Assembly: GCA_022340865.1 (NCBI GenBank)
Contig: JAJDNC010000061.1
Coordinates: 15,648 to 79,647 of the forward strand
DNA length: 64,000 nt
DNA from: Gemmatimonadota bacterium
Lineage (GTDB): Bacteria > Gemmatimonadota > Gemmatimonadetes > Longimicrobiales > Gaopeijiaceae
Reading direction: 5' to 3'
Position 1 is the stretch's first letter, and each line of letters starts with the position of its first letter. The position numbers and the translations under genes were made by a program. Positions 21,903 to 61,298 of this stretch are shown here, one piece after another. The notes beneath the pieces were generated by a model. It made no database searches and had not been told where the DNA came from. It saw nothing but the letters and a program-made list of their open reading frames with translations.

Positions 21903-22104
21903 CCACCGCTCGCCACCTTCCCGGCTCAGGCCCGAAGCCCTTGGATCGTTTGCGCTTACGCTGCTCCGTAGGCCGACCGAACAGTTGCATTTCCTGTCCC
22001 TCGGCGCACGGAGTACCGGTGCGTCGGTGCGGCCTTACGCGTTTGCCGACCTCTCGGCGCCATGAGGGCGTCGCGTCCGTTGTTTCCCGGAATGAGGTCG
22101 AATC

Positions 22105-27492: not shown

Positions 27493-27562
27493 GTTCACGC
27501 GGTGCCCACGCCGATGCGGATATGCCTTTGTCGTCACGGCGCTCTCGCTGTCACGCTCCCGA

Positions 27563-28888
27563 TCATCGATCAAGTCCATTCCACCGGGGATCGACCGGCT
27601 CCGTGAGTCGAGGGGATCCCGGCTCATGGTGGGTCCTCCGCCCGCGCCCGTGCACGTGCCGGGCTGCCGCCAAGCCGAATGCCGCAGCCCCGAGCGCACC
27701 GAGGCCGCCCACGACGACGGCCGCGCGCGCGCCCAATGTATCGGTAATCGCTCCCAGAATCGGGCCGCTGATCGGCTTCGTGCCCGCGAACAACACGGCC
27801 TGTATCGAGAGCACGCGCCCGATCATCCGCTGGTCGGCGCGGATCTGGACGATGGCGGAGGTCGCGGTCATGTAGGCGACGCTGGCGCCTCCGACCGCGA
27901 CGGCCAACACGATCGCGATGGTGACGTCGGGGGCGGCCGCGAGGACGAGCATCGCCACCCCGAGCCAGAGGGCGCCCACCGCGACGGTTCGGATGCGGAT
28001 CGTGGTCCGTCGGGCCACGAGCACCGCACCGGCCACCGCGCCCGCGCTGAAGGCCGAGTAGAGGATCGTGTAGGCGACGTCACTCCCGCCCAGCCCCTTC
28101 TCGACGAAGAGGGGGAAGAGCACCGAGAAATTGTAGCTCACGGTACCGACGATGAGGAGCATGCCGAACGGAGCCCAGAGCTCGGGGATGCCGGCGATGT
28201 ACCGGAGGCCGGCGCGGATCTGTCCCCTGCCCCGCGGCGCCGCTTCCAGTCGGCGCAGCTCGGCCGTGCGCATCATGGCAAGCGCGACGAGCACGGTCGT
28301 GTAGGATGCCGCGTCGATGGTGAAGCACCATCCGTATCCGACGGTCACGATGAGGACGCCGGCCAGGGCCGGGCCCGCGATGCGGGAGATGTTCACCATC
28401 GCGCTGTAGACGGTCACGGCGTTGGGAACGTCCTCGAGCGCCACCATCTCGTTGACGAACGTGCGCCGGACCGGATTGTCGAAGGCCAGCATGACGCCGC
28501 CCGCCACGGCGGTGCCGTAGAACGCGAGGAGGGGCGCGTCGTGCATGAAGGCGAGCGCGGCCAGCGCGAACGACTGGCACATCTCCAGCGTCTGTGTGAC
28601 GAAGAGGAGCGTGCGCTTCTCGGTCCGGTCGACGACGACGCCCGCCCAGGGCGCGAAGAGCAGGATCGGGCCGAACTGGCATGCCGACAGCACGCCGACC
28701 GCCACGCCGCTCCCCGTGCGGTGGAGCACGAGCAGGGTGAGGGCGATCCGGGTGAGCCAGTTGCCGGTATTGGAGACGGTCTGCCCGAAGAAGAAGAGCC
28801 GGAAGTTCCGCCACCGCAGGGACGCGAGCGTGCGGCGGACGAAACCGGGCTCGGGCACGGGAGACCTCCGGCTGGGCTGGTGCGGCAC
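27563..28888 (-). CDS. MFS transporter (EntS/MFS_3-like exporter)
   Basis: It has WRNFRLFFFGQTVSNTGNWLTRIALTLLVL and 12 TM segments. Confidence 0.8.
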   Translation of the reverse strand: MPHQPSRRSPVPEPGFVRRTLASLRWRNFRLFFFGQTVSNTGNWLTRIALTLLVLHRTGSGVAVGVLSACQFGPILLFAPWAGVVVDRTEKRTLLFVTQTLEMCQSFALAALAFMHDAPLLAFYGTAVAGGVMLAFDNPVRRTFVNEMVALEDVPNAVTVYSAMVNISRIAGPALAGVLIVTVGYGWCFTIDAASYTTVLVALAMMRTAELRRLEAAPRGRGQIRAGLRYIAGIPELWAPFGMLLIVGTVSYNFSVLFPLFVEKGLGGSDVAYTILYSAFSAGAVAGAVLVARRTTIRIRTVAVGALWLGVAMLVLAAAPDVTIAIVLAVAVGGASVAYMTATSAIVQIRADQRMIGRVLSIQAVLFAGTKPISGPILGAITDTLGARAAVVVGGLGALGAAAFGLAAARHVHGRGRRTHHEPGSPRLTEPVDPRWNGLDR

Positions 28889-28896
28889 GGAGCGCT

Positions 28897-29334
28897 TCAG
28901 AGGTGCTGAGCCAGTCGCTCGATGAGGGGAGCTGCGGCCGCCAGCCGCTTGAGCTCCGCTTGCGTGAACCCACTCGACAGCGCGCGCGTCAACCGCTCCG
29001 TGCGTGCGGCGCGGCGGCTGCGCAGCATGCGGAGCCCCTCGCCCGTGACGGAAAGGATCATGCGCCGCCCGTCGTCCGGATCGGGCCGGCGCTGAATCAG
29101 GCCGCGACGCTCGAGGGCGGCGAGCGTCGCGCCCATCGACTGGGGGCTGATCTGTTCGAGCCTGGCAAGGGCCGCCGCGGTGCTCGGGCCGCCACGATCC
29201 AGCCAGGCCAGGGCCGAGGTCTCGGGCAGCGTGAGCTCGCCGCCCGCTTCCGTCTGCCGAATCCGCCGCCGCAGCAGACCGATGCTCGTACGAAGGGCTC
29301 CCGCGATTTCCTGGACATCCAGATCCTGGTGCAT
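28897..29334 (-). CDS. MarR family transcriptional regulator
   Basis: It shows the winged-HTH pattern: LTLPETSALAWLDRGGPSTAAALARLEQISPQSMGATLAALERRGLIQRRPDPDDGRRMIL. It is the first gene of a marR-MFS-MATE operon. Confidence 0.85.
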   Translation of the reverse strand: MHQDLDVQEIAGALRTSIGLLRRRIRQTEAGGELTLPETSALAWLDRGGPSTAAALARLEQISPQSMGATLAALERRGLIQRRPDPDDGRRMILSVTGEGLRMLRSRRAARTERLTRALSSGFTQAELKRLAAAAPLIERLAQHL

Positions 29335-29693: not shown

Positions 29694-31265
29694 ATGTCGC
29701 TGCGCGCTCGTGCGACGCTGCCCGACCGCTTCAACGCGGCCGAGTGGTTCGTGGGCCGGCACGTCCGGGAGAACCGTGCAGACCGCACGGCCGTCGTCTC
29801 GGACGAGGGCACGCTCGATTACGCCGGCCTGGACGAGGCGGTACGGCACCGCGCCGCGGCGCTCCTCCAGGCAGGCCTGCATCCGGGTGATCGGGTGGCC
29901 CTCCTGCTGCCGGACGGACCGGAGCTGCTGTCGCTGTTCTGGGGCGTTCTCGCGGCCGGCGGCGTGGCCGTGCCCTTGAACACGCTGCTCGGCGAGGACG
30001 AGATCTCCCGCATCCTCGATGACTGCGATCCGCGGATCGTGGTGGCGGATCCCGCACTCGCCGACGCCCATCGTCTTGCGCGCGAGGGCACCGTCTTGTG
30101 GTCTCCCGCGGAGTCGGCGGACCGCGCCGCCTTGGTGCCGCCGGTCACCGCGTACGCCTCGACCCGACGCGACGGGGTGGCCTTCTTCCTGTATTCGAGC
30201 GGGACGACAGGGGAGCCCAAGGGAGTCGTCCACCTCCACCACGACATGTGGGTATGCTGTGCGACATACGGAGAGCAGGTGCTCGGGATCCGGCCCGACG
30301 ACCGCTGCCTGAGCCTGGCCAAGCTGTTCTTCGCGTACGGCCTCGGAAACTCCGGCTACTTCCCCGCCCATGAGGGCGCGGCCACGGTGCTCTTTGCGGG
30401 GCGCCCCACACCGGCGGCCATGTTCGAGCAGGTGGCCCGCCACAGGCCCACGCTCTTCTTCGCCGTCCCGACGGCCTACGCCCAGATGCTCGACGCCATG
30501 GAGCGCGGCGAAGATGCCGACTTCTCGAGCGTGCGGCTGTGCGTGAGCGCCGGGGAGTCGCTGCCCGCTCCGATCTTTCGGCGATGGCTGGAGCGCACCG
30601 GAACCGAGATCCTGGATGGCATCGGCTCGACGGAGATCTGCCACATCTTCCTGTCGAATCGGCCCGGCGCGTGCGCCCCTGGCACCACGGGTCGTCCCGT
30701 CCCGGGATACGACCTGCGCCTCGCCGACGAGGACGGGCGCGACGTGCCAGCCGGTCAACCCGGCGACCTCTTCGTGTGCGGCGACTCCACCATGGCCTTG
30801 TACTGGAACCGCCACGAGGAGACCAAACGCACTCTCGAGGGCGACTGGATCCGCACCGGCGACAAGTATCTCGTGGACGAGGACGGCAACTGGAGGCACG
30901 CCGGCCGGAGCGACGACATGCTCAAGGTCGGAGGGATCTGGGTCTCGCCGGTGGAGGTCGAAGCCACTCTGGTGGCGCACGAGGCGGTGCTGGAGTGCGC
31001 GGTGGTGGGCGAGAGAAACGCGGAGGGACTCGTGAAGCCCGCGGCATTCGTGGTGCTGAAGAACGGGGCGACAAGGGCGAGTGTCGAGGGTGCGATGGGA
31101 AACAGCGTCGATGGGATCGCTCGCGAGCTCCAGGACTTCGTCAAGGAGCGGCTGGCTCCCTACAAGTACCCCCGCCACATCCTGTTCCGGGATGCGCTCC
31201 CCAAGACCGCCACCGGCAAGATCCGACGCTTCTTGCTGCGCCAGGAGTTGGAGGCGAACCCCTGA
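29694..31265 (+). CDS. Benzoate-CoA ligase family aromatic acid-CoA ligase (AMP-forming adenylating enzyme)
   Basis: It has FNAAEWFVGRHV..., YSSGTTGEPKGVVH (AMP-binding P-loop), KLFFAYGLGN (characteristic of the benzoate/4-hydroxybenzoate/2-aminobenzoate-CoA ligase clade), GDKY and PKTATGKIRRF. A GGGAGG SD is present. Confidence 0.8.
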   Translation: MSLRARATLPDRFNAAEWFVGRHVRENRADRTAVVSDEGTLDYAGLDEAVRHRAAALLQAGLHPGDRVALLLPDGPELLSLFWGVLAAGGVAVPLNTLLGEDEISRILDDCDPRIVVADPALADAHRLAREGTVLWSPAESADRAALVPPVTAYASTRRDGVAFFLYSSGTTGEPKGVVHLHHDMWVCCATYGEQVLGIRPDDRCLSLAKLFFAYGLGNSGYFPAHEGAATVLFAGRPTPAAMFEQVARHRPTLFFAVPTAYAQMLDAMERGEDADFSSVRLCVSAGESLPAPIFRRWLERTGTEILDGIGSTEICHIFLSNRPGACAPGTTGRPVPGYDLRLADEDGRDVPAGQPGDLFVCGDSTMALYWNRHEETKRTLEGDWIRTGDKYLVDEDGNWRHAGRSDDMLKVGGIWVSPVEVEATLVAHEAVLECAVVGERNAEGLVKPAAFVVLKNGATRASVEGAMGNSVDGIARELQDFVKERLAPYKYPRHILFRDALPKTATGKIRRFLLRQELEANP

Positions 31266-31303
31266 GCCAACGTTCGTGGCGGCGTGGTCGGGCCTTCCTC
31301 GAC

Positions 31304-32053
31304 GTGGGCGGCGCTCACCTGGAGGTTCGCCGCTTCGGCCCGCCACCGTCGGAAGCGCCGCCCATCGTCTTCCTTCACGAGGGGCTCGGATCGGCCCGGC
31401 AGTGGCGTGACTACCCGGCGCGGGTGTGCGACGCGCTCGGGCGGAGCGGCCTCGCGTACAGCCGGGTCGGCTATGGCGCCTCGGACCCGGTCGAGCTTCC
31501 ACGCCCCGTCTCGTTCATGCACCTGGAGGCGTACGATGTCCTTCCAGTGCTCCTCGACGCCGCCAGCATCGGGAGAGTGGATCTGTACGGTCACTCGGAC
31601 GGCGCCTCCATCGCCCTGTTGTTCGCGGCGCGCCACCCGGAGCGGACGGGCGCCATGGTGCTGGAGGCGCCGCACGTGTTCGTGGAGGAGGTCACCACGC
31701 GGAGCATCGCCCGCATCGGCAAGGTGTACCGCACCACGAATCTGCGCGAGAAGCTGGCCCGGTGGCACGACGACCCCGACGGCGCCTTCCGCGGCTGGAA
31801 CGAGGTGTGGCTGGACCCGGCGTTCCGCTCCTGGGACATCCGTCGGGAGCTCCCCGGTGTCCACGCTCCCGTGCTGATCCTCCAGGGCGCGGACGACGAG
31901 TACGGGACCTGGGCCCAGGTAGACGCGGTGGAACGGGGCGTGGCCGGCTCGGTCCGCTCGGTCCGGATCCCGGTATGTGGCCACGCTCCCCATCGGGACC
32001 AGCCGGACCGGGCACTCACGGAGGCCGTGGCGTTCCTGGCCGCGACGGCCTGA
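31304..32053 (+). CDS. Alpha/beta-fold hydrolase
   Basis: Only the 3' third of listed ORF 30539-32053 is real. It has IVFLHEGLGS, the nucleophile elbow GHSDGA, and C-terminal GHAPH. The proposed GTG start at 31304 is the first in-frame start after the ligase stop. Confidence 0.7.
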   Translation: MGGAHLEVRRFGPPPSEAPPIVFLHEGLGSARQWRDYPARVCDALGRSGLAYSRVGYGASDPVELPRPVSFMHLEAYDVLPVLLDAASIGRVDLYGHSDGASIALLFAARHPERTGAMVLEAPHVFVEEVTTRSIARIGKVYRTTNLREKLARWHDDPDGAFRGWNEVWLDPAFRSWDIRRELPGVHAPVLILQGADDEYGTWAQVDAVERGVAGSVRSVRIPVCGHAPHRDQPDRALTEAVAFLAATA

Positions 32054-32060
32054 CCACCCC

Positions 32061-33086
32061 TCAACCCGCCTTCCGGCCCTCCGCGAAGCCACTCAGCAGG
32101 CGGTGGACGCAGGTGCCGAGGACCTGGACGTTGTAGCCGCCTTCCTGGCAGAGGAGAACGGGACAATCGATGCGCGCGATACGCCGACCGATCTCCTCGT
32201 ACACCTCGGTCGTCAGGGCGAAGCCGCCGATGGGATCGTCGGCGTGGGTATCGAAGCCGGCCCCTACGACGAGGGCGTTCGGCCCGAATCGGCGTATCGC
32301 CTTCAGAGCGCGATCCAGGGCCTTCAGGTACGCCGCATCGCCGCTGCCCAGCGCGAGCGGGAGATTCAGGTTCGTTCCCGCCGCCTGGCCCACACCGCGC
32401 TCCGAGCCGTACCCCCAGAAGTATGGATACTCGCGCTTCGGATCGCCGTGGATCGAGCAGGTGAAGACGTCCTTGCGCTCCTCGAAGAACTCCTGGTTGC
32501 CGTTTCCGTGGTGGTAGTCGATGTCGAGCACCGCCACGGTCCCCGCGGCCGCAAGGATCTCGACGGCCGCAGCGACGTTGTTGAAGTAGCAGTATCCGCC
32601 GAAGACGCGCGGGCCGGCGTGGTGGCCCGACGGCCGGCAGAGCGCGTAGACCTCACGCTCGCGGCCGTCGAGCAGAAGCTGTGCGCCGGTCATGGCCGCC
32701 TCCGCCGAGCCGCGTGCCACCTCGTAGGTGCGGCCCATGATCGGGGTCACGGCGTCGGTGCAGTACAGGCCGCCCCACAGGGCGTCGAGCTTGCGGGGAA
32801 GTCGCGCTCCCTCGCCCGGAAAGAGGTCCGGGTAGATCTCCTCGCCGGCGCGGCGCGCCACCCTCGACGTCTTCTTGATGAAGTCGTGGTACGGATGGAG
32901 TCGCGAGAGGTTGGCTTCGGGAAAGCGTCGTGCCTTGCGGAAACGGAAGCGCGAATCGGCGGCGAGCGCCTCCCGGATCACCTCCACGCGCCGCGGGGTG
33001 TCCTTGGTCTCGTAGGTCTCGGGCCCGAGCGTGAACTTCCAGCTCGGGTTGTGCAGGCCGAAGTTGGTCTTCTCAATGATGAGCAC
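32061..33086 (-). CDS. Histone-deacetylase-family (HDAC/acetylpolyamine amidohydrolase-like) zinc amidohydrolase
   Basis: It has CRPSGHHAGPRVFGGYCYFNN, VLDIDYHHGNG, GFDTHADDP and QEGGY motifs. The GTG start at 33086 is preceded by GGAAGGGA and overlaps the upstream gene by 14 nt. The listed ORF extends implausibly to 33524. Confidence 0.8.
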   Translation of the reverse strand: MLIIEKTNFGLHNPSWKFTLGPETYETKDTPRRVEVIREALAADSRFRFRKARRFPEANLSRLHPYHDFIKKTSRVARRAGEEIYPDLFPGEGARLPRKLDALWGGLYCTDAVTPIMGRTYEVARGSAEAAMTGAQLLLDGREREVYALCRPSGHHAGPRVFGGYCYFNNVAAAVEILAAAGTVAVLDIDYHHGNGNQEFFEERKDVFTCSIHGDPKREYPYFWGYGSERGVGQAAGTNLNLPLALGSGDAAYLKALDRALKAIRRFGPNALVVGAGFDTHADDPIGGFALTTEVYEEIGRRIARIDCPVLLCQEGGYNVQVLGTCVHRLLSGFAEGRKAG

Positions 33087-35223
33087 GGATATCCCTTCCG
33101 TTGCGCAGGAGCTCGATGACGGTGTCCAGCGGCAGGGCCGGAGCCCGCCGGTCGAGGCGGCCGTCCATCCCGTTCGAGCAGAAGATGGCGTTGAGCACGG
33201 CCTCCTCGGTGGCCTCCACGGCCGCCTCGTAGAGCACGTCGATGTGCCCGTCGGGGACGTAGCGCAGTGATCGGAACTTGCTGGTCTGTGTCGCGGTCCG
33301 TGGAACCCGGTTCGCGGTCGTGAAGGCGAGGACGATCTCGCCGCTCGTGGAGGCGGCGTACGATCCCACGCGGCCCAGACCCAGAGCCGCGCGCTTTGCG
33401 ATGCGCCCGAGCTGATGGCTGAGCAAAGGGACGTCGGTGGCCACCACCACGATGGCCGAGCCGTAGCTGTTGTGGCGACGCCCCTCGTCCGCGTACTGCG
33501 AATCCAACTCCCGGCCGACGACACGGCCGTCCACGGTCAGGTTGACCAGTCGACCGAAGTTCGAAAGGACGAGCACCCCGAGGGTAAAGCTGGTCTCCTC
33601 GATGGGGAAGATGCGCGAGGCCGTGCCGATCCCCCCGGCGAAGTCACAGGTCATCATCCCGCAGCCGGCACCGACGGACCCCTGGGCCACGGGTCCGTCC
33701 CGCGCCGACTCGATCGCTTTCAGTGTGTCCTGTCCCGAAGCGACGCCCACACGAGCGTCGTTGAGGAACGAGTCGTCCGCCTCTCCGACCACCGGTAGCA
33801 CCACGTCCTCGGCGTCGCCGATCTCCGGGTGGCGTCGGGCCATGTAGGAGTTCACTCCGTTCAGGACCCGGCCCACAGACAGCGAGTTGGTGAGCAGGAT
33901 CGGTGTCTCGATTAGACCCCACTCCATCGCCTGTGTGAGGCCGGCCATCTCGCCGACCCCGTTCAGCACGAAGGCACCCGCGACCATACGTCGCCGGAAG
34001 ACGTCTCCAGCCCCGGGGATGACGGCAGTGACCCCGGTGCGGACGCGCGTGGTGTCGCTCGTGCCCGGTACCGGAGCGTCGTCTTCGAATCGCGTGACGT
34101 GCCCGACACGGACGCCCTTCACGTCGGTGATGGCGTTGTTCAGGCCCGCGTCCAGTCGTCCGATGGTCACGCCGAGCTGTCGCGCCGTGGGGCGCGCCTC
34201 CCCTTCGCCGTCGCCCTCCCTCCGACCCGGTGTTCGCACAGGCAGTCTGTGGCGCCGGGCGGCCGAACGCACGATGAGCCGCATCACGTCCTTGAACTCC
34301 AGTCCACAGGTTCTGGCCGCGGTCATCAGCGACGCCTGCGGATGCAGGCTGGGCAGCGGATTCAGCTCGATGAAGTACGGATCTCCATTGTCGTGGAGGC
34401 GGATGTCCACACGTCCCAGATCGGGACAGTGCATGACCTCGAAGAGGTGACGCGCCATCTCCACCACCCGTTCACGCTCGTCGGCGGTGAGCTCGGCGGG
34501 ACAGACCACGTTGACGGCCCGCGCCCTGTCTCCTCCCTGCTTCATGTCGTAGTCGTAGATGTTGTACTTGCCGCCGACCGCGGCGAGGTCGAACGTGTGC
34601 TCGACGACGGCGAGGATCTTGCCCGGATAACTCTCCAGAAGCGGAATGCTCAGCTCGCGGCCCGGGATGAACTCCTCCACCACCAGACCGGCCGGATAGC
34701 GCGCGAGCATCTTCTCGGCCAGGGCTTCGAAGGCTTCCCGGCTCTCGACCACCGAGTCCTGTGTGACCCCCTTGCTCGACCCCTCGGCGTTGGGCTTCAC
34801 CATCAGCGGGAACTCGATGCCCGTCGGGATGTCTCGCCGCGTGGGCGTGATCACCCCTCCTCGAGGGACCCGGATGCCGCGAGCGGCCACCACGGTCTTC
34901 GCAAGGTGCTTGTCCAGGTTCATGTGCAGCAGCGAGGGATTGCCTCCGCTGAACGGAAGGCGGAGCTGCTCGTAGAGACCGGGATAGAAGGCTTCCCGCG
35001 ACGTGCCGATCGTGCCCTCGGCGAGGTTGAAGATCAGGTCGGGGTCACTGTCCAGGAGCCGCTCGACGACGTCATCGGGCTGACCCGTCACCTCCACCGG
35101 CGTCACCTTGTGGCGGAGTTGGCGCAGCGCCGAGCAGATTCGGTCGATGTCCTCCGCAGTCAGGAGCTCGGCCGTCTCCTCCGAGGCATCGGTGCGCAAG
35201 TTGTGGGCGACGGTGATCCGCAC
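33073..35223 (-). CDS. Fusion protein: D-alanine-D-alanine-ligase-like ATP-grasp domain (N-terminal) plus peptidase S58/DmpA-BapA (P1) aminopeptidase domain (C-terminal)
   Basis: A GTG start at 35223 lies 5 nt after AAGGAGG. The N-terminal half has ATP-grasp motifs (FPLMVKPNAEGSSKGV, VVEEFIPGRELSIPLL, GRVDIRLHDNGDPYFIELNPLPSL). After an Arg/Gly/Glu-rich linker, the C-terminal half begins NAITDVKGVRVGHVT and contains GSVGAGCGMM...GGIGTASR and YGSAIVVVATDVPLLSHQLGRIAKRAALGLGRVGS. The last resembles the Gly-Ser self-cleavage site and following strand of DmpA/BapA-type enzymes. Confidence 0.75.
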   Translation of the reverse strand: MRITVAHNLRTDASEETAELLTAEDIDRICSALRQLRHKVTPVEVTGQPDDVVERLLDSDPDLIFNLAEGTIGTSREAFYPGLYEQLRLPFSGGNPSLLHMNLDKHLAKTVVAARGIRVPRGGVITPTRRDIPTGIEFPLMVKPNAEGSSKGVTQDSVVESREAFEALAEKMLARYPAGLVVEEFIPGRELSIPLLESYPGKILAVVEHTFDLAAVGGKYNIYDYDMKQGGDRARAVNVVCPAELTADERERVVEMARHLFEVMHCPDLGRVDIRLHDNGDPYFIELNPLPSLHPQASLMTAARTCGLEFKDVMRLIVRSAARRHRLPVRTPGRREGDGEGEARPTARQLGVTIGRLDAGLNNAITDVKGVRVGHVTRFEDDAPVPGTSDTTRVRTGVTAVIPGAGDVFRRRMVAGAFVLNGVGEMAGLTQAMEWGLIETPILLTNSLSVGRVLNGVNSYMARRHPEIGDAEDVVLPVVGEADDSFLNDARVGVASGQDTLKAIESARDGPVAQGSVGAGCGMMTCDFAGGIGTASRIFPIEETSFTLGVLVLSNFGRLVNLTVDGRVVGRELDSQYADEGRRHNSYGSAIVVVATDVPLLSHQLGRIAKRAALGLGRVGSYAASTSGEIVLAFTTANRVPRTATQTSKFRSLRYVPDGHIDVLYEAAVEATEEAVLNAIFCSNGMDGRLDRRAPALPLDTVIELLRNGRDIRAHH

Positions 35224-35404
35224 GTGTTCCTCCTTGTTTCGATCTCGCCGACGCAACGGGTGTCCGGCCTCTCCCCGGCGCGAGGAAGGGCCTGGAGACA
35301 AGATCGGAACGTCCCGTGGATAGGTATCGAACCGCAAGCACAGACGTCAAACGAGGGCATGGGCGGCAGCGCCGCCGCCCTCTGGGGTAGGCGCGGTCGG
35401 TCCG

Positions 35405-36118
35405 CTACCCGGGTAGCGACGCGACCACCACCGTGGACGGCCCCTCCTGCCAGTCACAGCGCGCGTCGAAGCCCGCCGCCCGGAGAAGGCGGAGCTCCTC
35501 CTCCAACGGGAAGTAGGTGTCCTCCGACGCCCACTCCGCGAAGTGCTTCCACGCCCGCGCCTCTGGGATGCCCGACGACACGAGATGGTCGGCCCAGCCG
35601 CGGAACGCCATGTCGCGATCCGGGCCCTCCGCCGGCATGGTGACGTCCGCGTTCACCAGGACGCCGCCGGGTCGGAGCGCCGTCGCCACCCTCCGGAAGA
35701 TCTCCGCCTTGGCGTCCAGCGTCGCGATGTGGTGGAGGGAGAGGGATGCGGCGACGGCGTCGCACGAGGGGATGGGATCCGCGAAGGACCGAAGCGTGAA
35801 GCGCACCCGGTCGCCGTGGTCCTTCAAGCGGACGCGAGCCTGAGACAGCATCTCCGGGTCCACGTCCACCAGCTCGACCACGCCTACGCCCTCGTGCCAC
35901 AGGATGGCCTCCGAGAGGGCGCCTGTCCCGGCACCGAGATCGAGGACGAGGGCCGGGGCGACGGACGCCACCGCGGCGGCCGCCCGGACGAGCATGGTGT
36001 CGTACCCGGGAATGAACTGTCGGATGGCGGCGTCGTATCCGACGATGTCCACCCGGAGGTGGCGGCGAACGCTGTGGCTCAACGGGGTGGCCGTGCCATG
36101 GGAGTCAGCGGAGGGCAT
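35405..36118 (-). CDS. Class I SAM-dependent methyltransferase
   Basis: It has motif I VLDLGAGTGALSE and the downstream acidic VELVDVD. It overlaps the 3' end of the upstream peptidase gene by 14 nt. Confidence 0.75.
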   Translation of the reverse strand: MPSADSHGTATPLSHSVRRHLRVDIVGYDAAIRQFIPGYDTMLVRAAAAVASVAPALVLDLGAGTGALSEAILWHEGVGVVELVDVDPEMLSQARVRLKDHGDRVRFTLRSFADPIPSCDAVAASLSLHHIATLDAKAEIFRRVATALRPGGVLVNADVTMPAEGPDRDMAFRGWADHLVSSGIPEARAWKHFAEWASEDTYFPLEEELRLLRAAGFDARCDWQEGPSTVVVASLPG

Positions 36119-38675
36119 CCTCCGCCTGCTTCAGAGCCGCGGTCGCGTGGTCGAACCGCGACGCCAGGTCCGCGATCTCGCGCCCGGTCCGGGCCTCGTC
36201 GCCCGCGCGGATGGCCTCCTTCACCGATGGGAACACCATGGTCGCGTAGCCGTTGTCCTCGTCGGCGACGTACACGAGGTTGCGGAACCAGGAGCGCCCT
36301 ACCAGCCCATGCGGCCGCGTGAGGGCACGCTCGACCCGGAGCAGCGCGGCGTTGGTCTTCTCGAGCGTGCTCCCGGACGGCTCCTTGCCCGCCAGGGCCG
36401 CATCCCGCGTCGCGGCGAAGGACTTCGCCCGGGCCTCCATACGATCGATGGCGGCCGAGAGCGCGCTCGTGTCCAGCGTCCAGCCGTGCTCCGAGAGGGA
36501 CTTGCCGAGAGCCGGGAGGTATCCGCGCATCGTCTTCGCATACTCGACATAGTCGTAGGGGAGCACGTCGGCGTTGGCGATGCGCAGCGCGATGGCCGCC
36601 CCGAGCTGCGCGGCAGCGATGTGCTCTCGGTACCCCGGGTCGCCGAAACGTGACATCCATGCGGGGTCGTCGTACTGCGAGTGGTAGATCCCCTGAGCGC
36701 CGCCGAAGCCCCACTCGAGGATCGGGATGCCCAGGTGGTTGTAGAAGCCGGCGTAGTCGGAGCCGCCGCCCGGGTCGCCCATGCGCGGCTTCTGCCCCTC
36801 GGGCGTGTGCGACTGGGCCATCCACGCGTCCCAGAGCGACCCTTCGTTGGGCGTGTCGGGGGTGTCCGGCGCCGGCACCTCTTCGGCCGCCGAGCGCAGC
36901 ACCGCCCGTAGCGAGGGCGAGCCGCCGCCGCCGAAGGTCGGGCCGGACGCGATCATGTCCTGGTTCAGATAGGCGACGCCGCCCTTCTCCAGCCGCAGCG
37001 AGTCGTCCTCCACGTACTCCACCGAGCCCACCAGCCCCCACTCCTCCGCGTCCCATGTGGCGAAGACCATGGTACGCTTCGGCCGCTTCCCCGCCTTCAG
37101 CTCGTCGGCCACCGCGTGTGCGATCTCCATAACGCTGACCGAGCCGCTCACGTTGTCGTCGGTGCCCGGGCCCCAGGCATCGCGGTGCCCACCGACCACG
37201 ACGATCTCGTCCGGGAACTCGCTGCCCCGTACCACCCCGAAGGTGTCCCAGATGTGCTTGTACGGCGCCGTCTCCTCATCCGTCTTCACCGCGACGCGCG
37301 CCACGACGGGGCCCGGCCCGACGTGGTACCGGAACGGGAGGCCACCCTGCCAGTAGTCGGGGATGTCGGTGCCGCGCACGCCTTCCAGGAGCTCCTGGGC
37401 GTTGCCATAGGAGATCGGGACGACCGGGATGTGCGGGATCACCGAATCGGGGGAGACGCGCGGCGCGTCCTCTTTGCTCGGGTAGCCCGGCGTAGTGGGG
37501 TCGCCATCGACGTTCAGCACGCTGCCGCGCTGGACGCCGAACTTCGGGCGCATGGGGCCCTCGGGGTAGACATCGCCCTGGTCGTAGCCGTCATCGGCCG
37601 GGTCGCTGTAGATGAGGAGCGCCGCCGCGCCGTGCTTCTCCGCCTCGCGCGCCTTGATGCCGCGGAACGAGCGGCCGTAGCGGGCGATCACGATCTTGCC
37701 CTTCACCGACACGCCCAGCGAGTCGAGCTTCGCGTAGTCCCCGATGAGCCCGTAGTTCACGTAGACGACGGGCGCGGTCACGTCCCCCGCCGCGCTACTG
37801 CCGTTCACAGTCGGGTACTGCGGCTCGGCGCTCACCCGGTCGCCCGGCACCGGCGGCTCCGCCAGTGAGAGCTCCTCGGGGTCCGGGCTCACGCGCCAGA
37901 CGTGTACCGCCGTCGCGTGCGGGAGGTAGACCTTGTACGTGCGGTACGAGGTGGACAGACCCCACGCCTTCATGCGCCCGAGCACGGTGTCGCGCGTCAT
38001 CGCCTGTGCCGGCGTGCCGGCCACGTGGATCTCGCTGCTCAAGGCGACGGATTCCGCCCGCGCCTCACCGGTGTCGGGCCGCGTCACCGCGTCCGCCTCG
38101 AGCGCTCGCTCGCGCACCGACGCGGCAGGGGTGTAACCGGGAAGCTGCTGCGCCGCCAGCGGGGCCGCGCAGATCCAGAGCGCCGGCGCCAGCGCCGGCA
38201 GGAGGGAGGATCTCATTCCGATGTCCGTCCAGGTCTTCCCCGCGTCCGTGGACCTGTACATGCCGTCGCCCCAACTGGACGACTGGCCGCGTGGCTCCGA
38301 CTCGCCCATCCCGGCATACACCACGTTGGGATCGCTGGGCGCGACGGCGAGCGCGCCGATGGAGCCCATGCGAATCTGGTTGTCGGACACGTTGTTCCAG
38401 GTGATGCCGGCGTCGGTGGTCTTCCAGATGCCGCCGCCCGTAGCACCCATGTAGAAGGTCTTGGGCTGCTGTGGTATTCCGGTGACGGTGGTTACGCGAC
38501 CCCCGCGGTAGGGGCCGATGCTGCGCCAGTGCAGTCCGCCGAAGAGCGTCGAGTCGAACGTCGAAGCGCCCGTGACCAGCTCGGGCGGTGTCTGGGCGGT
38601 GGCGGACGGGGCCGTCAGGGTCAGCGCGACGACGACGAGGGCGCCGGTCGCGAACGGAATGCGGGCAGATCGCAT
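36105..38675 (-). CDS. M28 family metallopeptidase of the glutamate carboxypeptidase II/transferrin-receptor-like type (PA + M28 + TfR-like dimerisation domains). The ORF is extended at its 5' end by a duplicated sortilin-like gene fragment, and the native start is probably ATG 38216.
   Basis: The PA domain has VVYVNYGLIGDY...GKIVIARYGRSFRGIKAREAEKHGAAALLIYSDP. The M28 metal ligands are GGHRDAWGPGTDDNVSG and ATWDAEEWGLVGS. A C-terminal helical dimerisation-like domain follows. Residues 1-153 of the ORF are near-identical to the N-terminus of the CDS at 57932-61105. Residue 154 onward (MRSSLLPALAPALWICAAPLAAQQ) looks like the peptidase's own signal peptide. Confidence 0.75.
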   Translation of the reverse strand: MRSARIPFATGALVVVALTLTAPSATAQTPPELVTGASTFDSTLFGGLHWRSIGPYRGGRVTTVTGIPQQPKTFYMGATGGGIWKTTDAGITWNNVSDNQIRMGSIGALAVAPSDPNVVYAGMGESEPRGQSSSWGDGMYRSTDAGKTWTDIGMRSSLLPALAPALWICAAPLAAQQLPGYTPAASVRERALEADAVTRPDTGEARAESVALSSEIHVAGTPAQAMTRDTVLGRMKAWGLSTSYRTYKVYLPHATAVHVWRVSPDPEELSLAEPPVPGDRVSAEPQYPTVNGSSAAGDVTAPVVYVNYGLIGDYAKLDSLGVSVKGKIVIARYGRSFRGIKAREAEKHGAAALLIYSDPADDGYDQGDVYPEGPMRPKFGVQRGSVLNVDGDPTTPGYPSKEDAPRVSPDSVIPHIPVVPISYGNAQELLEGVRGTDIPDYWQGGLPFRYHVGPGPVVARVAVKTDEETAPYKHIWDTFGVVRGSEFPDEIVVVGGHRDAWGPGTDDNVSGSVSVMEIAHAVADELKAGKRPKRTMVFATWDAEEWGLVGSVEYVEDDSLRLEKGGVAYLNQDMIASGPTFGGGGSPSLRAVLRSAAEEVPAPDTPDTPNEGSLWDAWMAQSHTPEGQKPRMGDPGGGSDYAGFYNHLGIPILEWGFGGAQGIYHSQYDDPAWMSRFGDPGYREHIAAAQLGAAIALRIANADVLPYDYVEYAKTMRGYLPALGKSLSEHGWTLDTSALSAAIDRMEARAKSFAATRDAALAGKEPSGSTLEKTNAALLRVERALTRPHGLVGRSWFRNLVYVADEDNGYATMVFPSVKEAIRAGDEARTGREIADLASRFDHATAALKQAEDALR

Positions 38676-38754
38676 GGGGAGGGCAGGGGGTGCGAGGCAC
38701 GAGAACCTGGAATCGACGGACCCGATTATACGGCTCGACCACCGGGTGTGCGAG
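38214..38754. repeat. Copy A of a ~540-bp segmental duplication (partner at 60644-61178)
   Basis: Direct base-by-base comparison shows roughly 90% identity across the first ~460 nt of the sortilin-like coding sequence plus ~80 nt of upstream leader, including the shared block GAATCGACGGACCCGATTATACGG. Confidence 0.9.
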
Positions 38755-39143
38755 CCGGTGCCGCCTGCCGTCGGCCAACCCTTCCGAGTGACGGGCGCTG
38801 CCCCTCCTGCTGCACCCGGCGCACGGCCGAGTCGGCGGTCTTCCCACGGCGAGCCTCGAGGAGCTCGAGTTCCCGGGATCCAGCCAGGAGAGCGTCACGT
38901 CGGCCGCTCACCTGAACGAAACGTTCCAGCGGCGCGACGCGCTGTTGCAATGCGTTGCACCGCGCGACGGACGCTTTGAGGACGAATGTCCGCGGAAGTC
39001 GTTGCAGCGTCATGCGTTGTGCACTCGGCGCGGGTTTGGCCCCATCCCTGCTCAGTGGGCTCGCGCGAGACTTCCTCACCAAGTCCGAAGGTGCTGAGAC
39101 ATCGTCACATACTGATGCGGGCCCGGCGCCCGCTGGAGGATAA

Positions 39144-40643
39144 ATGAATACGTTGAGCCGTGTCGGCTTCGCCGGCCTGCTCCTCGGGCTGGCCGCGGGG
39201 CCGATCCACGCCCAGACCAACGGCTTCGAGCTGCAGTGCATGTCGGCTCGGGCGGCGGGGCGCGGATGCGTCACCCGTGCCCAGCCGGATCTTCCCACCT
39301 CGCTCTTTCGTGATCCTGCGGGGATCGCGGTCTTCACGCGTCCCGTCCTGGAGGTGAACGCGGCACCCTTCATGCCGACGCTCACCTTCCAGAACGCCGT
39401 GAACGCCCGTACGGAGGGCGCCCGTCATGCCTACCCGCTCTTTTCCGCGGCGTACGTGGGCCGTCCCATCGGGGAGCGCCTGCACTGGGCGGTGGGGCTC
39501 GAGCCCATCGGCGGCTTCGGCTCCGACTTCAGGCTCCAGAACGCGCTGCTCAGCGGAGCGAGTGGAACGCCCGTCGACTACAAGAGCTTCTTCATGGCGG
39601 TCAAGGTCGGACCCACTCTGGCCTACGAAGTCCTTCCCGGACTCAGCGTCGGCGCGAGCGTGAGCGGAGTCTACGCGCAGATTCGCGAGTTCCAGATGCC
39701 CTTCACCATGGCGCCCTCCTTCGCGCAGGGCATGGCCGCCATCCCGCAGCTCGACCCGGCCGTGTACGGACCGCTCTTCCAGCAGTTCACGGAGATGACG
39801 GCGTACGGGGACTCGAAGGGGTTCGCCGGGCTCACCTGGGCCGCCGACGCGGGCGCGGCGTATCACGCCCCGTCCGGATGGGCGGTGGCGGCATCATGGA
39901 GCCCGAAGCGGACCATCAGGCTGGACGGCGGTACCGCCTCCATCGACATGAGCGCCCAGTTCCAGCAGATGCTGGGAGCAATGGTGGCCGCGCGTGCAGC
40001 GGCGTACAACGAAACCCTGCAAGTGGCCCAGGGCGTGGTCATGGGACAGCTCGCGGCGGCGGGGCTCGACCTCACGGAGGGAATGAGCGCCGTCTACGCC
40101 GCCTCGACCGATCTGACCCTGCCCATGACCATCGGGGCGGGTCTCCACGCTCCCGTCCGGTCCTGGTGGGCCCTTTCCGCCGAGGTGGAGTGGCGCCAGT
40201 GGTCCAGGGCGGAAGCCACCATGCCCTTCCGCCTGACGGGAGGCGACAACACCAACCTGAATCTCCTGGTGAACGGAAGTCCGACGAACGGCTCGTTCGC
40301 CTACCCCTTCCCCTTGAACTGGAAGGACACCTGGTCGTGGAAGGTGGGGAGTGAGTTCACCGTCCCGGGTGGGTACGTGCTCCGGGCCGGATTCCTCTCC
40401 GGGGCGGATCCCGTGCCCGCCAACACGGTCTTCATCGCGTTCCCGGCCATCGCCACCCGAGCGGTCACCCTGGGTGTGGGTACGCAGATCCTCGGCTTCC
40501 CCCTCGACATCGCGTACGTGCACGCGCTCTCCCAGGAGCTCGAGGGGAACTCGGTGCACTCTCTCATGGGGGCGGAGTACGTCGGGAGCCGCACGACCAT
40601 GCGCCAGGATGTCCTGACCCTGGGGACGACGTTCCACTTCTGA
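39144..40643 (+). CDS. FadL/TodX/OMPP1-family outer-membrane hydrophobic-compound transporter
   Basis: It has a signal peptide ending HAQ, alternating beta-strand patterning and a terminal aromatic residue (...TLGTTFHF). A GGAGG SD is present. The family call is made by overall resemblance only. Confidence 0.6.
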   Translation: MNTLSRVGFAGLLLGLAAGPIHAQTNGFELQCMSARAAGRGCVTRAQPDLPTSLFRDPAGIAVFTRPVLEVNAAPFMPTLTFQNAVNARTEGARHAYPLFSAAYVGRPIGERLHWAVGLEPIGGFGSDFRLQNALLSGASGTPVDYKSFFMAVKVGPTLAYEVLPGLSVGASVSGVYAQIREFQMPFTMAPSFAQGMAAIPQLDPAVYGPLFQQFTEMTAYGDSKGFAGLTWAADAGAAYHAPSGWAVAASWSPKRTIRLDGGTASIDMSAQFQQMLGAMVAARAAAYNETLQVAQGVVMGQLAAAGLDLTEGMSAVYAASTDLTLPMTIGAGLHAPVRSWWALSAEVEWRQWSRAEATMPFRLTGGDNTNLNLLVNGSPTNGSFAYPFPLNWKDTWSWKVGSEFTVPGGYVLRAGFLSGADPVPANTVFIAFPAIATRAVTLGVGTQILGFPLDIAYVHALSQELEGNSVHSLMGAEYVGSRTTMRQDVLTLGTTFHF

Positions 40644-41500: not shown

Positions 41501-43234
41501 CTACCCGAACACCGAGTCCAGCTCGGCGTCGGATACGTCGAAGGTCACGTTGTGGGGCGCCAACGGCTCCCGCTTGAAGTAGCGGGGCAGACGGTCGTCG
41601 GCGCTGGTGAACCCGGCCCGCTGGTTGAAGTCCCGCTCGAAGGCCAGGATCTTGCTGCCGTAGGCGGCCACGCCGGCGGCGTCGAGGTTCCATCCGTAGT
41701 AGGCGTTCAGCAGGTCCACCAGGGCCTGGAACGTGTCGGGCTGATCCAGCACGGCGAACGCGATGAACAGACACATGCCGGTGGCGTCCACGGCGGCGGT
41801 GGCGATCTGGAGGTTCTTCGACAGCTCGGCCTGCCCCTCCGCCTTCAGCGGGTCCACGTCGCCGCCCACCTTCAGGATGTTGGTGGCCACGGCGTAGCCG
41901 GCGGTGTGATCGGCCCCCATGGGGGAGGTGGCATAGGTGACGCCTATGCCCTTCACTGCGCGAGGATCGTAGGCCGGCATGGCCTGTCCCTTGACGCAGG
42001 GCGCGTGCTCGATGCCGTACACCCGGGCCGTCGTGGCCGTGCCCGAACCGAGGATACGGCCCAGGGGCGTGCCCTTGCCGACCTCGCGCACCAGCTCGAT
42101 GGCGGCCTGGCCGTCGCCGAACTTCGCCACCCCCGCCTCCATCGCGACGGCGATGGTGGCCCCCATCTCGATGGTGTCGAGGCCGTAGTCGTCGTCCAGG
42201 CGGTCCAGCTCGGCGATGACGTCCAGGTCGTCGATGCCGCAGTTGGCTCCGTGAGCCCAGACGGTCTCGTATTCGGGCTGTTTGGTGACGTACCTCCCGT
42301 CCTTGTTCACGAAGGTGCCGGAGCACTGGATGATGCACCCCCGGTGGCAGCCGTGGGTGGCACTCCCACCCCGGGCCACCTCCAGCTCGGCCTGGGTCTC
42401 GCCGCTGATCTTGGAAGCGCCTTCGAACTGGCCGGTGGCGAAGTTGCGAGTCGGCAGCCCCCCGGCCTCGTTGATGACGTTGGTGAGAACGTTGGTGCCG
42501 TAGGCCGGCAGGCCCTCGCCCGTCACCGGATGCTTCTCCAACCCCTCCACCCATGCCTTGCTTGCCGCCTTGAAGGCCTCAGGGTCGGCGGGCTTGCGTG
42601 ATTTCGCACCTTTGGCGTCGATGAGGATGGCCTTGATCCCCTTCGACCCCATGACGGCACCTACCCCCCCACGCCCGGCGTGACGGGTCGGGCGACCCTC
42701 CATGTCGGTGATGCTGACGGTGGAGTTGCCGTATCCCATCTCCCCGGCCGTGCCGATGGCGATCATCGCCCCGGTCTTGTCATACTCGCCCAGGAACTTG
42801 TCCATGAGCTGGTAGTTGGTGGCACGGCGTACGGACGGGTCCGCAGTGATGGTGACCCCGTCCTTGCTGATGCGAACGACGTACAGATCATCGCCCTGAC
42901 GCGCGCCTTCCAGCACGATGGCGGCATAGCCCAGACGGGCCAGGAGCTGCCCCGCCTGGCCCCCGGCGTTGGCCTCCTTGATCCCCCCGGTAAGGGGGCT
43001 CTTGCACCCTACCGAGATGCGGCCACTCATGGACGCGGCGGTTCCGGAGAGGAGTCCCGGCGCGATGACCAGCTTGTTCTCGGGTCCGAGGGGATGGGCG
43101 TCGGCCGGGACCTCGGTGGCTACGATGGCCGAGGTCAGCCCCCGCCCGCCGAGGCCGGCGTAGTCACCCACGGGCGTTGGCGTCGCTTTGGGTCCGCCGG
43201 CCGCTCCAACGTCGATTCTCAGAATCGTGTCCAT
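41501..43234 (-). CDS. Aldehyde:ferredoxin oxidoreductase (AOR) family tungsto/molybdopterin enzyme
   Basis: It has the typical AOR N-terminus MDTILRIDV...GGRGLTS...NKLVIAPGLLSG...GRISVGCKSPLTGGIKEANAGG, and AOR domain 2/3 motifs (DxxGLD: DDYGLDTIE; CxxxC-containing region HGCHRGCIIQC; KGQAMPAYDPR). Confidence 0.85.
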   Translation of the reverse strand: MDTILRIDVGAAGGPKATPTPVGDYAGLGGRGLTSAIVATEVPADAHPLGPENKLVIAPGLLSGTAASMSGRISVGCKSPLTGGIKEANAGGQAGQLLARLGYAAIVLEGARQGDDLYVVRISKDGVTITADPSVRRATNYQLMDKFLGEYDKTGAMIAIGTAGEMGYGNSTVSITDMEGRPTRHAGRGGVGAVMGSKGIKAILIDAKGAKSRKPADPEAFKAASKAWVEGLEKHPVTGEGLPAYGTNVLTNVINEAGGLPTRNFATGQFEGASKISGETQAELEVARGGSATHGCHRGCIIQCSGTFVNKDGRYVTKQPEYETVWAHGANCGIDDLDVIAELDRLDDDYGLDTIEMGATIAVAMEAGVAKFGDGQAAIELVREVGKGTPLGRILGSGTATTARVYGIEHAPCVKGQAMPAYDPRAVKGIGVTYATSPMGADHTAGYAVATNILKVGGDVDPLKAEGQAELSKNLQIATAAVDATGMCLFIAFAVLDQPDTFQALVDLLNAYYGWNLDAAGVAAYGSKILAFERDFNQRAGFTSADDRLPRYFKREPLAPHNVTFDVSDAELDSVFG

Positions 43235-61178: not shown

Positions 61179-61298
61179 CTCGTGACCCCGGCTGTCTGAG
61201 TCGCCTCACGCTGGGCGACGGTCGAGAGGATACATTGCCTTCGACGCCTTCGACGATCGCACGTGTTCGCCTCTTCGCACCCTCTTCGAGGAGATCCC

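Follow-up and report, generated by a model that had tools for sequence, protein, structure and literature searches.

An ATP-grasp/S58 fusion gene and an APAH-type deacetylase gene form a conserved, uncharacterised pair with a tentative link to beta-lysine metabolism

The DNA analysed here (the window) is a 64,000-nt stretch of contig JAJDNC010000061.1 from a Gemmatimonadota bacterium (GCA_022340865.1), in which four minus-strand genes occupy positions 32061-38675. In the direction of transcription, these are an 856-aa ORF with an M28 peptidase region (36105-38675), a gene for a 237-aa class I SAM methyltransferase (35405-36118), a gene for a 716-aa ATP-grasp/S58 fusion protein (33073-35223, starting with GTG at 35223), and a gene for a 341-aa HDAC-like protein (32061-33086, GTG start). 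The first two genes overlap by 14 nt (36105-36118), as do the last two (33073-33086), and a 181-nt spacer (35224-35404, minus strand) lies 5' of the fusion gene. The spacer holds a ribosome-binding site, read from the sequence as AAGGAGG at 35235-35229, and gave no match in an Rfam search or in a scan for promoter and terminator consensus. The four genes, their families, both overlaps and the gap all agree with the original prediction when compared with gene calls and Pfam matches.

The M28 region carries PA, Peptidase_M28 and TFR_dimer Pfam domains, and its best solved match was human GCPII (1z8l, E 1e-95). Treating the 856-aa ORF as a plain M28 gene was rejected, as the ORF is a chimera with a truncated sortilin/BNR 5' end. 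Its first 153 codons (38217-38675, minus strand) encode the N-terminal fragment of a sortilin/BNR-type protein with a signal peptide (Sortilin-Vps10 and BNR matches); the fragment shares 47% identity with residues 10-154 of the 1056-aa BNR protein of the window (22096-25266). This fragment is joined in frame to the GCPII-like peptidase proper (36105-38216, minus strand), which has its own Met (ATG at 38216) and signal peptide, and this chimera also occurs in two contigs of the same species, L067 and L068. The methyltransferase had generic Pfam and NCBIfam matches only, all under equivalog cut-offs, and its homologues in other Gemmatimonadota (60-82% identity) stand alone in unrelated contexts. 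A signal peptide precedes the M28 protein, which is similar to the GCPII ectodomain, and the other three proteins begin directly with their catalytic domains; judging from these sequences, the M28 enzyme would draw on a different substrate pool from theirs.

We then compared 98 non-redundant loci containing a fusion-gene orthologue of at least 58% identity. The M28 and methyltransferase genes were found in none of these loci except L067 and L068 (98% identity), and in close relatives from the Gemmatimonadota (80-92% identity) the fusion gene is preceded by PadR, cytochrome b or other genes. Upstream of the spacer, synteny was gone in every relative outside the species, and the spacer is the probable 5' boundary of a two-gene unit. 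The M28 and methyltransferase genes are chance neighbours that a local rearrangement in this species placed beside this unit. Of the non-redundant loci, 77 had downstream DNA; in all but one of these (76 of 77), the HDAC-like gene lay immediately 3' of the fusion gene and in the same orientation, with a gap of -10 to +678 nt (median ~2). The tight packing originally noted does exist in this sequence, but the fusion/HDAC junction is the one part of it retained across genomes. Pairing of these two genes is nearly obligate, and they are probably translationally coupled through their 14-nt overlap.

Fusion homologues 60-92% identical occur in at least 12 phyla, the pair being found, as named in the sequence records, in Acidobacteriota, Gemmatimonadota, Bacteroidota, Desulfobacterota, Planctomycetota, Verrucomicrobiota/Lentisphaeria, Kiritimatiellota, Sumerlaeota, Riflebacteria, Spirochaetota, Calditrichota, Cyanobacteriota and Myxococcota. 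The mean column identity of the fusion-protein alignment (A3) was 74%, and the ATP-grasp, S58 and deacetylase active sites were all intact and invariant in the alignments. Among 52 upstream and 49 downstream neighbours, no recurrent third family was found except GNAT (4 loci) and lysine 2,3-aminomutase. On these comparisons, the predicted functional unit is a two-gene cassette with three catalytic domains, made up of the fusion (33073-35223) and the deacetylase (32061-33086). The pair, for which literature searches gave no description, is uncharacterised; together with the pairing in 76 of 77 loci, this backs the earlier idea of an uncharacterised N-acyl/peptide system around these two genes.

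The ATP-grasp domain of the fusion protein covers roughly aa 1-330 (34234-35223, minus strand) and matched Dala_Dala_lig_C at 101.7 bits, with Ddl and VanA as its PDB matches (E 1e-20 to 1e-12). It missed all Ddl and Van cut-offs, scoring 142.5 bits against a cut-off of 243 with the NCBIfam Ddl models, and is therefore not an orthodox Ddl. K143, E147-S150, K228, Gln229, R271, D273, E286 and N288 were invariant in A3. From an alignment to E. coli DdlB, we take these residues, apart from Gln229, to be the Ddl ATP/Mg and acyl-phosphate residues; Gln229 presumably occupies the position of DdlB Tyr216, and R271 with the S298-L299 region presumably corresponds to the residues holding the acceptor carboxylate. 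The AlphaFold model of the fusion (mean pLDDT 65) was too poor for use.

The S58/P1 (DmpA/BapA-type) Ntn-hydrolase domain extends over aa 347-716 (33073-34185, minus strand) and matched Peptidase_S58 at 349.8 bits; its nearest solved structures were 2drh (E 6e-84), DmpA (1b65, 3e-58) and BapA (3n2w, 7e-52). Gly588-Ser589 (codons at 33457-33462, minus strand) aligned exactly with DmpA Gly249|Ser250 and is the predicted autoprocessing site with the Ser nucleophile, while N555, S627 and G628 aligned with DmpA N218, S288 and G289. All of these residues were invariant in A3. BapA and DmpA remove beta- or D-amino acids from the N-terminus of their substrates, and S58 enzymes are known as small-peptide aminopeptidases.

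The HDAC-like protein matched Hist_deacetyl at 226 bits, and no NCBIfam model gave it a name. Its closest solved relatives were the acetylpolyamine amidohydrolases (APAH) 6phr, 3q9b, 9gkz and 3men (E 1e-58 to 1e-62), and by sequence it is nearest to these small-molecule enzymes, not to protein deacetylases. RPSGHH (H155, H156), D190, H192, D279 and EGGY (Y318) were invariant in 16 partner deacetylases. The RPxGHH and EGGY motifs, which have been ascribed to acetyl-specific polyamine deacetylases (PMC11532494), are both present. Val occupies the position of Glu117 of M. ramosa APAH, a difference that is uninformative on substrate.

The only recurrent third partner was ablA/ablB, adjacent (within 10 kb) in ~10 of ~100 loci and in five or six gene orders. 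These neighbours are true ablA (TIGR03820, 668-779 bits, cut-off 525) and true ablB (TIGR03827, 272-347 bits, cut-off 205), and the linked loci fall into at least four separate sequence clusters of the fusion protein. The orders were ablA-ablB-fusion-HDAC-SSF (L023, L083, L057), ablB-fusion-HDAC (L024, L082, L117), ablA-MscS-ablB-fusion (L134), fusion-HDAC-ablA-ablB (L062) and fusion-HDAC-kaiBC-HK-MarR-ablA-ablB-MarC-SSF (L159). The usual abl locus of Marinilabiliales is MarR-ablA-ablB-MarC-SSF, and in L023 and L083 the cassette lies within an abl locus of this type. Three observations count against a functional link: the low share of loci with ablA/ablB nearby, their absence within 10 kb of L017 and L080, the nearest relatives of ablAB-linked loci (93% identical to L023), and the lack of either gene in the 64-kb window. 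KamA-family genes also accompany split and duplicated relatives: one lies ahead of an ATP-grasp gene that stands by itself and faces a separate S58 gene (L112), and others precede a double ATP-grasp gene (L135, L136); elsewhere a double ATP-grasp gene is followed by an S58 gene (L119, L110). In Methanosarcina, ablA and ablB are described as making the compatible solute N-epsilon-acetyl-beta-lysine (Pfluger et al. 2003, cited in PMC3543383), and no deacetylase, ligase or peptidase of this pathway turned up in our literature searches. A deacetylase in one operon with the acetyltransferase AblB looks futile unless regulated, or unless the final product differs.

We tentatively propose, at a confidence somewhat short of even, that the deacetylase yields beta-lysine from N-acetyl-beta-lysine, or acts on a comparable N-acetyl amine, and that the fusion both forms and breaks a beta-aminoacyl amide. 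The APAH-type deacetylase would strip acetyl from a small N-acetylated primary amine, the likeliest substrate being N-epsilon-acetyl-beta-lysine, chemically a carboxymethyl-substituted N-acetylputrescine, and the product beta-lysine. The Ddl-like domain would use ATP to form an amide bond between a beta-amino acid (beta-lysine) and a second partner of amino-acid type; carnosine synthase, whose product is a beta-alanyl dipeptide, is also an ATP-grasp enzyme. The fused S58 domain, putatively a Ser-nucleophile hydrolase that processes itself and belongs with the DmpA/BapA beta-/D-aminopeptidases, may cleave or transfer the N-terminal beta-aminoacyl residue of the ligase product. The pair would thus control a pool of beta-lysine-derived solutes, likely in osmoadaptation, as a synthetase/amidase couple fed by the deacetylase, and its logic would be analogous to that of glutathionylspermidine synthetase/amidase (GspSA).

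The same enzymes could serve polyamine conjugates, the deacetylase acting on N-acetylputrescine, N-acetylcadaverine or N-acetylspermidine and the fusion making or breaking an aminoacyl-polyamine amide as a GspSA analogue, with ablAB adjacency reflecting only a shared osmotic- or amine-stress regulon. We regard this as rather unlikely. The characterised APAH structures nearest to the deacetylase, its polyamine-deacetylase motifs, and flavin amine-oxidase-type genes downstream in 2-3 of 49 loci are consistent with it, but no polyamine biosynthesis or transport genes recur beside the pair; what does recur is ablA/ablB and other KamA-family aminomutases, also in the HDAC-less split versions, and R271 and S298-L299, presumed from the DdlB alignment to hold a carboxylate, suggest an amino-acid acceptor. 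Salvage of D-amino acids or cell-wall peptides, by a D-Ala-D-X ligase, a D-aminopeptidase and a deacetylase of an N-acetylated amino acid or amino sugar, appears improbable. D-Ala-D-Ala ligases and DmpA-type D-aminopeptidases (2drh, 1b65, 5tzb) are the top-scoring named families, yet the scores fall well under every Ddl cut-off, the invariant Gln229 presumably replaces Ddl Tyr216, murein, alanine racemase and van genes are not among the recurrent neighbours, and the deacetylase belongs to the APAH type and not to the sugar or amino-acid deacetylases. It is very improbable that the pair modifies proteins, combining protein-lysine deacetylation with an amino-acid tag added or removed by ATP-grasp/S58 in the manner of RimK or tubulin tyrosine ligase (TTL): the ligase is Ddl-like (the dipeptide-forming type), not RimK- or TTL-like, S58 enzymes act on small peptides, and no candidate target-protein gene is conserved beside the pair, although a GshB-like ATP-grasp gene and a QEGLA-motif gene recur near it in L004, L005 and L062, and some bacterial APAH-type enzymes have side activity on acetyl-lysine peptides (PMC11532494). 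Least credible is the four-gene operon originally predicted to build, trim, de-acylate and methylate one N-blocked acidic peptide, which is refuted by the test proposed with it, co-localisation of the orthologues in other genomes. Co-directional packing with two overlaps in the window, L067 and L068 speaks for it, but the M28 and methyltransferase genes are missing from all other fusion loci, the methyltransferase occurs alone elsewhere, the M28 protein alone is predicted to be exported, the truncated BNR gene marks a rearrangement scar at the M28 gene, and the spacer with its strong ribosome-binding site parts the two halves. The accompanying glutamate/acidic-peptide chemistry is displaced by the better-supported link to beta-lysine/N-acetyl-beta-lysine, and the 'D-aminoacylase' ORF (61200-63005, Amidohydro_3), invoked for a D-/N-acyl-amino-acid theme, lies ~23 kb off on the opposite strand with no evidence of linkage to the cluster.

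Compared with known systems, the ATP-grasp domain shares the Dala_Dala_lig_C fold with the Ddl/Van family, but has the N-terminal motif NLR...E..AEL where Ddl has GGxSxE, Gln at what we take to be the Tyr216 position, and linkage to KamA-family aminomutases, not murein genes. The S58 domain keeps the Gly|Ser autoprocessing site and the N218/S288/G289 equivalents of DmpA/BapA (MEROPS P1, formerly S58), whereas here it is fused C-terminal to an ATP-grasp ligase, so that self-cleavage would leave the ligase on the alpha chain. GspSA, in which an ATP-grasp amide synthetase and an amidase act on the same bond type, is a precedent for a fused synthetase/amidase; its amidase is an unrelated CHAP domain, its domains run in the opposite order and it acts on other substrates, making this an analogy only, with no amidase homology. 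The deacetylase matches APAH enzymes (M. ramosa 3q9b, Marinobacter subterrani 6phr, P. aeruginosa PA0321/PA1409; 'cluster 4' of PMC11532494) over its full length (E ~1e-60), with identical Zn ligands, His-His pair, catalytic Tyr, RPxGHH and EGGY, but belongs to its own tightly conserved subfamily, which has RPS in place of RPP, invariant YPDLFPG, LWGG..CTDAVTPI and EYPYFWGY blocks, and a constant gene position behind the ATP-grasp/S58 fusion. Bona fide ablA and ablB, from a pathway that as described consists of two enzymes only, flank the pair in ~10 loci.

The four open reading frames (ORFs) of the region, in a window of about 69% G+C, are co-directional on the minus strand. They comprise an 856-aa M28-containing ORF (36105-38675; PA, Peptidase_M28 and TFR_dimer domains), a 237-aa ORF with class I SAM methyltransferase domains (35405-36118), a 716-aa ORF that joins Dala_Dala_lig_C to Peptidase_S58 (33073-35223; the fusion) and a 341-aa ORF with a Hist_deacetyl domain (32061-33086; the HDAC-like gene, or deacetylase). 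These Pfam results upheld the four family assignments of the original prediction, and the gene calls reproduced exactly its two 14-nt overlaps and 181-nt gap. The fusion starts with GTG at 35223, and AAGGAGG lies ahead of it at 35235-35229. A promoter and terminator scan of 31700-39200 gave nothing informative, no riboswitch or other known RNA was found upstream of the fusion in the window region, and a search for known RNAs across 15 loci returned tRNA and tmRNA only. The window also holds a MarR-MFS-MATE efflux set (26131-29334, minus strand), a FadL/TodX-type outer-membrane channel gene (39144-40643, plus strand) and a tungsten-type aldehyde:ferredoxin oxidoreductase gene (41501-43234, minus strand), none of which recurs beside the fusion and deacetylase genes elsewhere.

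We fetched 62 genome and 80 metagenome loci encoding fusion relatives, each with as much as 10 kb of flanking DNA per side, and searched 146 fetched loci by tblastn with all four window proteins; after deduplication, 98 loci encoded a fusion orthologue sharing at least 58% identity. The HDAC-like gene was found 3' of the fusion on the same strand in 76 of the 77 loci with enough downstream DNA, the sole exception to this order being a split version (L112). The two genes usually overlap or abut, with a tblastn offset of -10 to +15 nt in most loci. Judged by record titles, carriers of the pair belong to at least 12 phyla; Draconibacterium halophilum, Marinilabilia salmonicolor and Tangfeifania diversioriginum are cultivable examples. 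Fusions are 60-73% identical between phyla (74% mean column identity in the alignment), the deacetylase has a mean column identity of 71% over 16 partner sequences, and across phyla the pair retains 60-90% identity with all catalytic residues fixed. One fusion cluster, defined at a threshold of 75% identity, brings together contigs labelled Bacteroidales, Desulfobulbales, Planctomycetaceae, Spartobacteria, Calditrichaceae and Melioribacteraceae, and its fusions (L008-L025, L080-L094) are 75-90% identical to each other. This points either to recent movement of the cassette between phyla, provided that the bin taxonomy is right, or to mis-binned contigs. At 52-55% identity, three loci (L100, L101, L114) form a full-length ATP-grasp/S58 sister clade with no deacetylase in the available downstream DNA, and in L105, whose fusion is 52% identical, the HDAC-like neighbour is only 37% identical.

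The deacetylase gave a Hist_deacetyl score of 226 bits, and its zinc ligands D190, H192 and D279, the tandem H155-H156 and Y318 are invariant in the 16 partner sequences, so that by sequence it is assigned to the Zn-dependent HDAC/APAH family. Its nearest solved relatives are acetylpolyamine amidohydrolases (E 1e-58 to 1e-62), not protein deacetylases, and it carries the RPxGHH and EGGY motifs, which have been tied to acetyl-specific polyamine deacetylases (PMC11532494). These features favour the strongest rival explanation, in which the pair acts on polyamine conjugates. Glu117 of the M. ramosa APAH binds the internal amine of the acetylpolyamine substrate, and alignment places Val113 of the deacetylase at this position, where specificity is not readable from sequence. 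N-acetyl-beta-lysine amounts to N-acetylputrescine with a carboxymethyl branch and is therefore a plausible APAH-type substrate.

In the S58 domain of the fusion, Gly588|Ser589 aligns with the autoprocessing site and nucleophile of DmpA (1b65), Gly249|Ser250, while Asn555 aligns with DmpA Asn218 and Ser627-Gly628 with DmpA Ser288-Gly289; all five fusion residues are invariant in the fusion alignment. The autoprocessing site and aligned residues place the domain in the P1/S58 family (DmpA, BapA), and self-cleavage is predicted. BapA- and DmpA-type enzymes take off N-terminal beta- or D-amino acids. The first domain was matched by PF07478, PF02655 and PF13535, and K143, D273, E286 and N288 (the Lys and Mg-binding residues) are invariant, with an Arg also kept, which supports its assignment to the ATP-grasp superfamily. 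A predicted structure of the fusion (22-sequence alignment) reached a mean pLDDT of 65 and a pTM of 0.46, too weak for fold-search or domain-packing claims. Salvage of D-amino acids or cell-wall peptides by the pair, an unlikely rival, would suit the D-aminopeptidase activity of DmpA-type enzymes and a Ddl-like ligase domain. Against it, the fusion scored far under all Ddl and Van cut-offs (best NCBIfam/TIGRFAM Ddl scores 142.5 bits against a cut-off of 243 and 115.3 against 245.65) and does not class as a D-Ala-D-Ala ligase proper. The present annotations 'P1 family peptidase', 'D-alanine--D-alanine ligase' and 'histone deacetylase' are likely misleading. Protein modification by the pair is a further and still less likely rival.

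To find conserved neighbours of the pair, we clustered the ORFs of 62 loci all-against-all and scanned 52 upstream and 49 downstream neighbours with Pfam. The only recurring neighbours were ablA/ablB, together with a GshB-like/QEGLA gene pair and an SSF symporter (three loci each); all other surrounding genes were variable. The GshB-like ATP-grasp gene (PRK12458, just below cut-off) and the QEGLA-motif gene (TIGR02421), a second ligase and a putative hydrolase, lie a few kb downstream of the fusion/deacetylase pair in two phyla (L004:15286-18356, L005:16890-18931, L062:15375-18390). The third partners ablA (TIGR03820) and ablB (TIGR03827), which make N-epsilon-acetyl-beta-lysine, both scored above curated cut-offs. 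Methanogens and some anaerobic bacteria use this compound as a major compatible solute, and we found no enzyme described in the literature for its removal or further conversion.

The abl genes flank the pair in about 10 loci, in several gene orders: ablA-ablB-fusion-HDAC-SSF symporter (L023, L083, L057), ablB-fusion-HDAC (L024, L082, L117), ablA-MscS-ablB-fusion (L134), fusion-HDAC-ablA-ablB (L062) and fusion-HDAC-kaiBC-kinase-MarR-ablA-ablB-MarC-SSF (L159). By fusion sequence, the abl-linked loci belong to at least four separate clusters. The usual Marinilabiliales abl locus is MarR-ablA-ablB-MarC-SSF, and the cassette sits inside it in L023 and L083. Three Marinilabiliales-type contigs (L155, L156, L157) conserve a MarR-ablA-ablB-two small ORFs-MarC-SSF layout. 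The SSF symporter gene comes after the cassette in L023 and L083 as well, a hint that the solute or its precursor may have a transporter of its own. In L159 (13649-18512), the pair is separated from MarR-ablA-ablB by KaiB, KaiC and a PAS histidine kinase/response-regulator hybrid, with every gene on one strand. One contig, reached via named AblB homologues, carries both systems about 6.8 kb apart. About 90% of loci had no abl genes within 10 kb, and neither ablA nor ablB was found within the 64-kb window.

Distant relatives repeat a theme of KamA, ATP-grasp and S58 genes without the deacetylase; KamA-family enzymes produce beta-amino acids. In L112 (897-3362), a KamA-family gene stands ahead of an ATP-grasp gene of its own, whose product shares 31% identity with the domain in the window, and a stand-alone S58 gene (62% identical to the window's S58 domain) faces the two. 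A KamA-family gene precedes a double ATP-grasp protein in L135 (1806-5199) and L136, and a double ATP-grasp gene precedes an S58 gene in L119 (8921-13057) and L110 (3144-7154). With L142 (304-2420), these loci make up a wider family at 31-52% identity, arranged as double Ddl-like ATP-grasp plus separate S58, KamA plus double ATP-grasp, tandem ATP-grasp or fully split KamA/ATP-grasp/S58; none of the six has an adjacent deacetylase.

We tentatively favour a three-step mechanism as the most likely reading of these sequences, at a little short of an even chance. The deacetylase would convert N-acetyl-beta-lysine, or a like acetyl-amine, to free beta-lysine. The ATP-grasp domain would ligate a beta-amino acid to an amino-acid-type partner, and the fused S58 domain would cleave or transfer the ligated beta-aminoacyl unit. 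Overall, the pair would act as a synthetase/amidase couple supplied by a deacetylase, which probably tunes solute pools.

The original prediction had joined all four genes in a single N-acyl/short-peptide system. Among the 98 non-redundant loci, the M28 and methyltransferase genes accompany the fusion in L067 and L068 only; at 97-98% identity to the window, these two contigs come from its own species. In relatives within Gemmatimonadota (80-92% identity; L049, L063-L066), the upstream genes are PadR, cytochrome b or others. Methyltransferase homologues (60-82% identity) are common in Gemmatimonadota, where they occur alone in unrelated contexts with no M28 gene nearby; an M28-methyltransferase pair was rejected as a conserved unit, with an M28 gene in none of eight methyltransferase contexts (three Gemmatimonadota homologues). 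The M28 protein is predicted to be exported, and the other three proteins start straight at their catalytic domains. The cluster was to be taken as an accidental juxtaposition if its orthologues never co-localised elsewhere, and this is what we found for half of it, because in these loci the M28 and methyltransferase genes lie with the fusion in one species only and methyltransferase homologues elsewhere lie in unrelated contexts. The HDAC-like gene is kept beside the fusion and the other two are not. The distant 'D-aminoacylase' (61200-63005), once counted in the same theme, was dropped for want of any link to the cluster. The four-gene model is the weakest rival and unfit to carry forward as an operon-level functional prediction; what stands is a well-supported, widespread orphan enzyme pair that is open to experiment.

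The M28 ORF itself proved to be a chimera. Its M28 part (36105-38216) has the GCPII/M28B architecture, with PF02225, PF04389 and PF04253 each above cut-off and human GCPII (1z8l) as the best solved match (E 1e-95, residues 64-669). The GCPII-like assignment thus holds for this part and not for the first 153 codons of the 856-aa ORF (38217-38675, minus strand), an N-terminal piece of a sortilin/BNR-type protein, signal peptide included, that is 47% identical to the start of the 1056-aa BNR protein of the window (22096-25266). At the junction (38216), the BNR piece runs in frame into the M28 gene, which retains a Met of its own and another signal-peptide-like segment, so that translation may start at 38675 or at 38216. 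The same chimera occurs in the near-identical metagenome contigs of the same species, L067 and L068, and is therefore a real rearrangement scar rather than an assembly error; it looks like a deletion scar. In other Gemmatimonadota (L151-L154), a full-length sortilin/BNR gene and an Asparaginase_2-Amidase-UDG-AMP-binding block flank a methyltransferase homologue. In the window (29694-38675), the corresponding flanks are the BNR fragment and an AMP-binding gene (29694-31265, 43% identical). Comparison of the two layouts points to insertion of both the M28 gene and the fusion/deacetylase cassette into an ancestral region that had been rearranged.

The deacetylase/ligase/S58 reading makes the pair a concrete, testable candidate for the missing N-acetyl-beta-lysine step, because strong conservation is combined with an acetyl-amine deacetylase, an amide ligase, a beta-/D-aminopeptidase and repeated embedding in abl loci. 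A stronger version, which we consider possible but rather unlikely, is that the pair supplies the branch still missing from N-epsilon-acetyl-beta-lysine metabolism, by which the solute is turned over or elaborated: a first dedicated deacetylase and a self-processing bifunctional enzyme interconverting beta-lysine and a beta-lysyl amide. If so, the amide could be a dipeptide or epsilon-linked beta-lysine oligomers that resemble the side chain of streptothricin. Cells could then shift a solute from an osmotically active form to a condensed or different one and back, and sediment bacteria from more than a dozen phyla would exchange the cassette horizontally. Whatever its substrate proves to be, the fusion family is large: of 8000 candidates scored, 1619 database clusters reached E 1e-10 or better.

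Each domain of the pair is a member of a known enzyme superfamily. Our literature search found no description of this gene combination, and the fused ligase-peptidase with an obligate APAH-type partner, like the link to abl loci, appears to be undescribed. The Glu15-Ser150-Tyr216 triad of Ddl was mapped onto the fusion by a provisional alignment to DdlB; by this mapping the Ser is kept (S149/S150) and the Tyr216 position is an invariant Gln229. The equivalent of Glu15 is uncertain in the N-terminal motif of the fusion, which differs from that of Ddl. By the same mapping, the fusion keeps the Lys, Mg-binding and Arg residues of Ddl.
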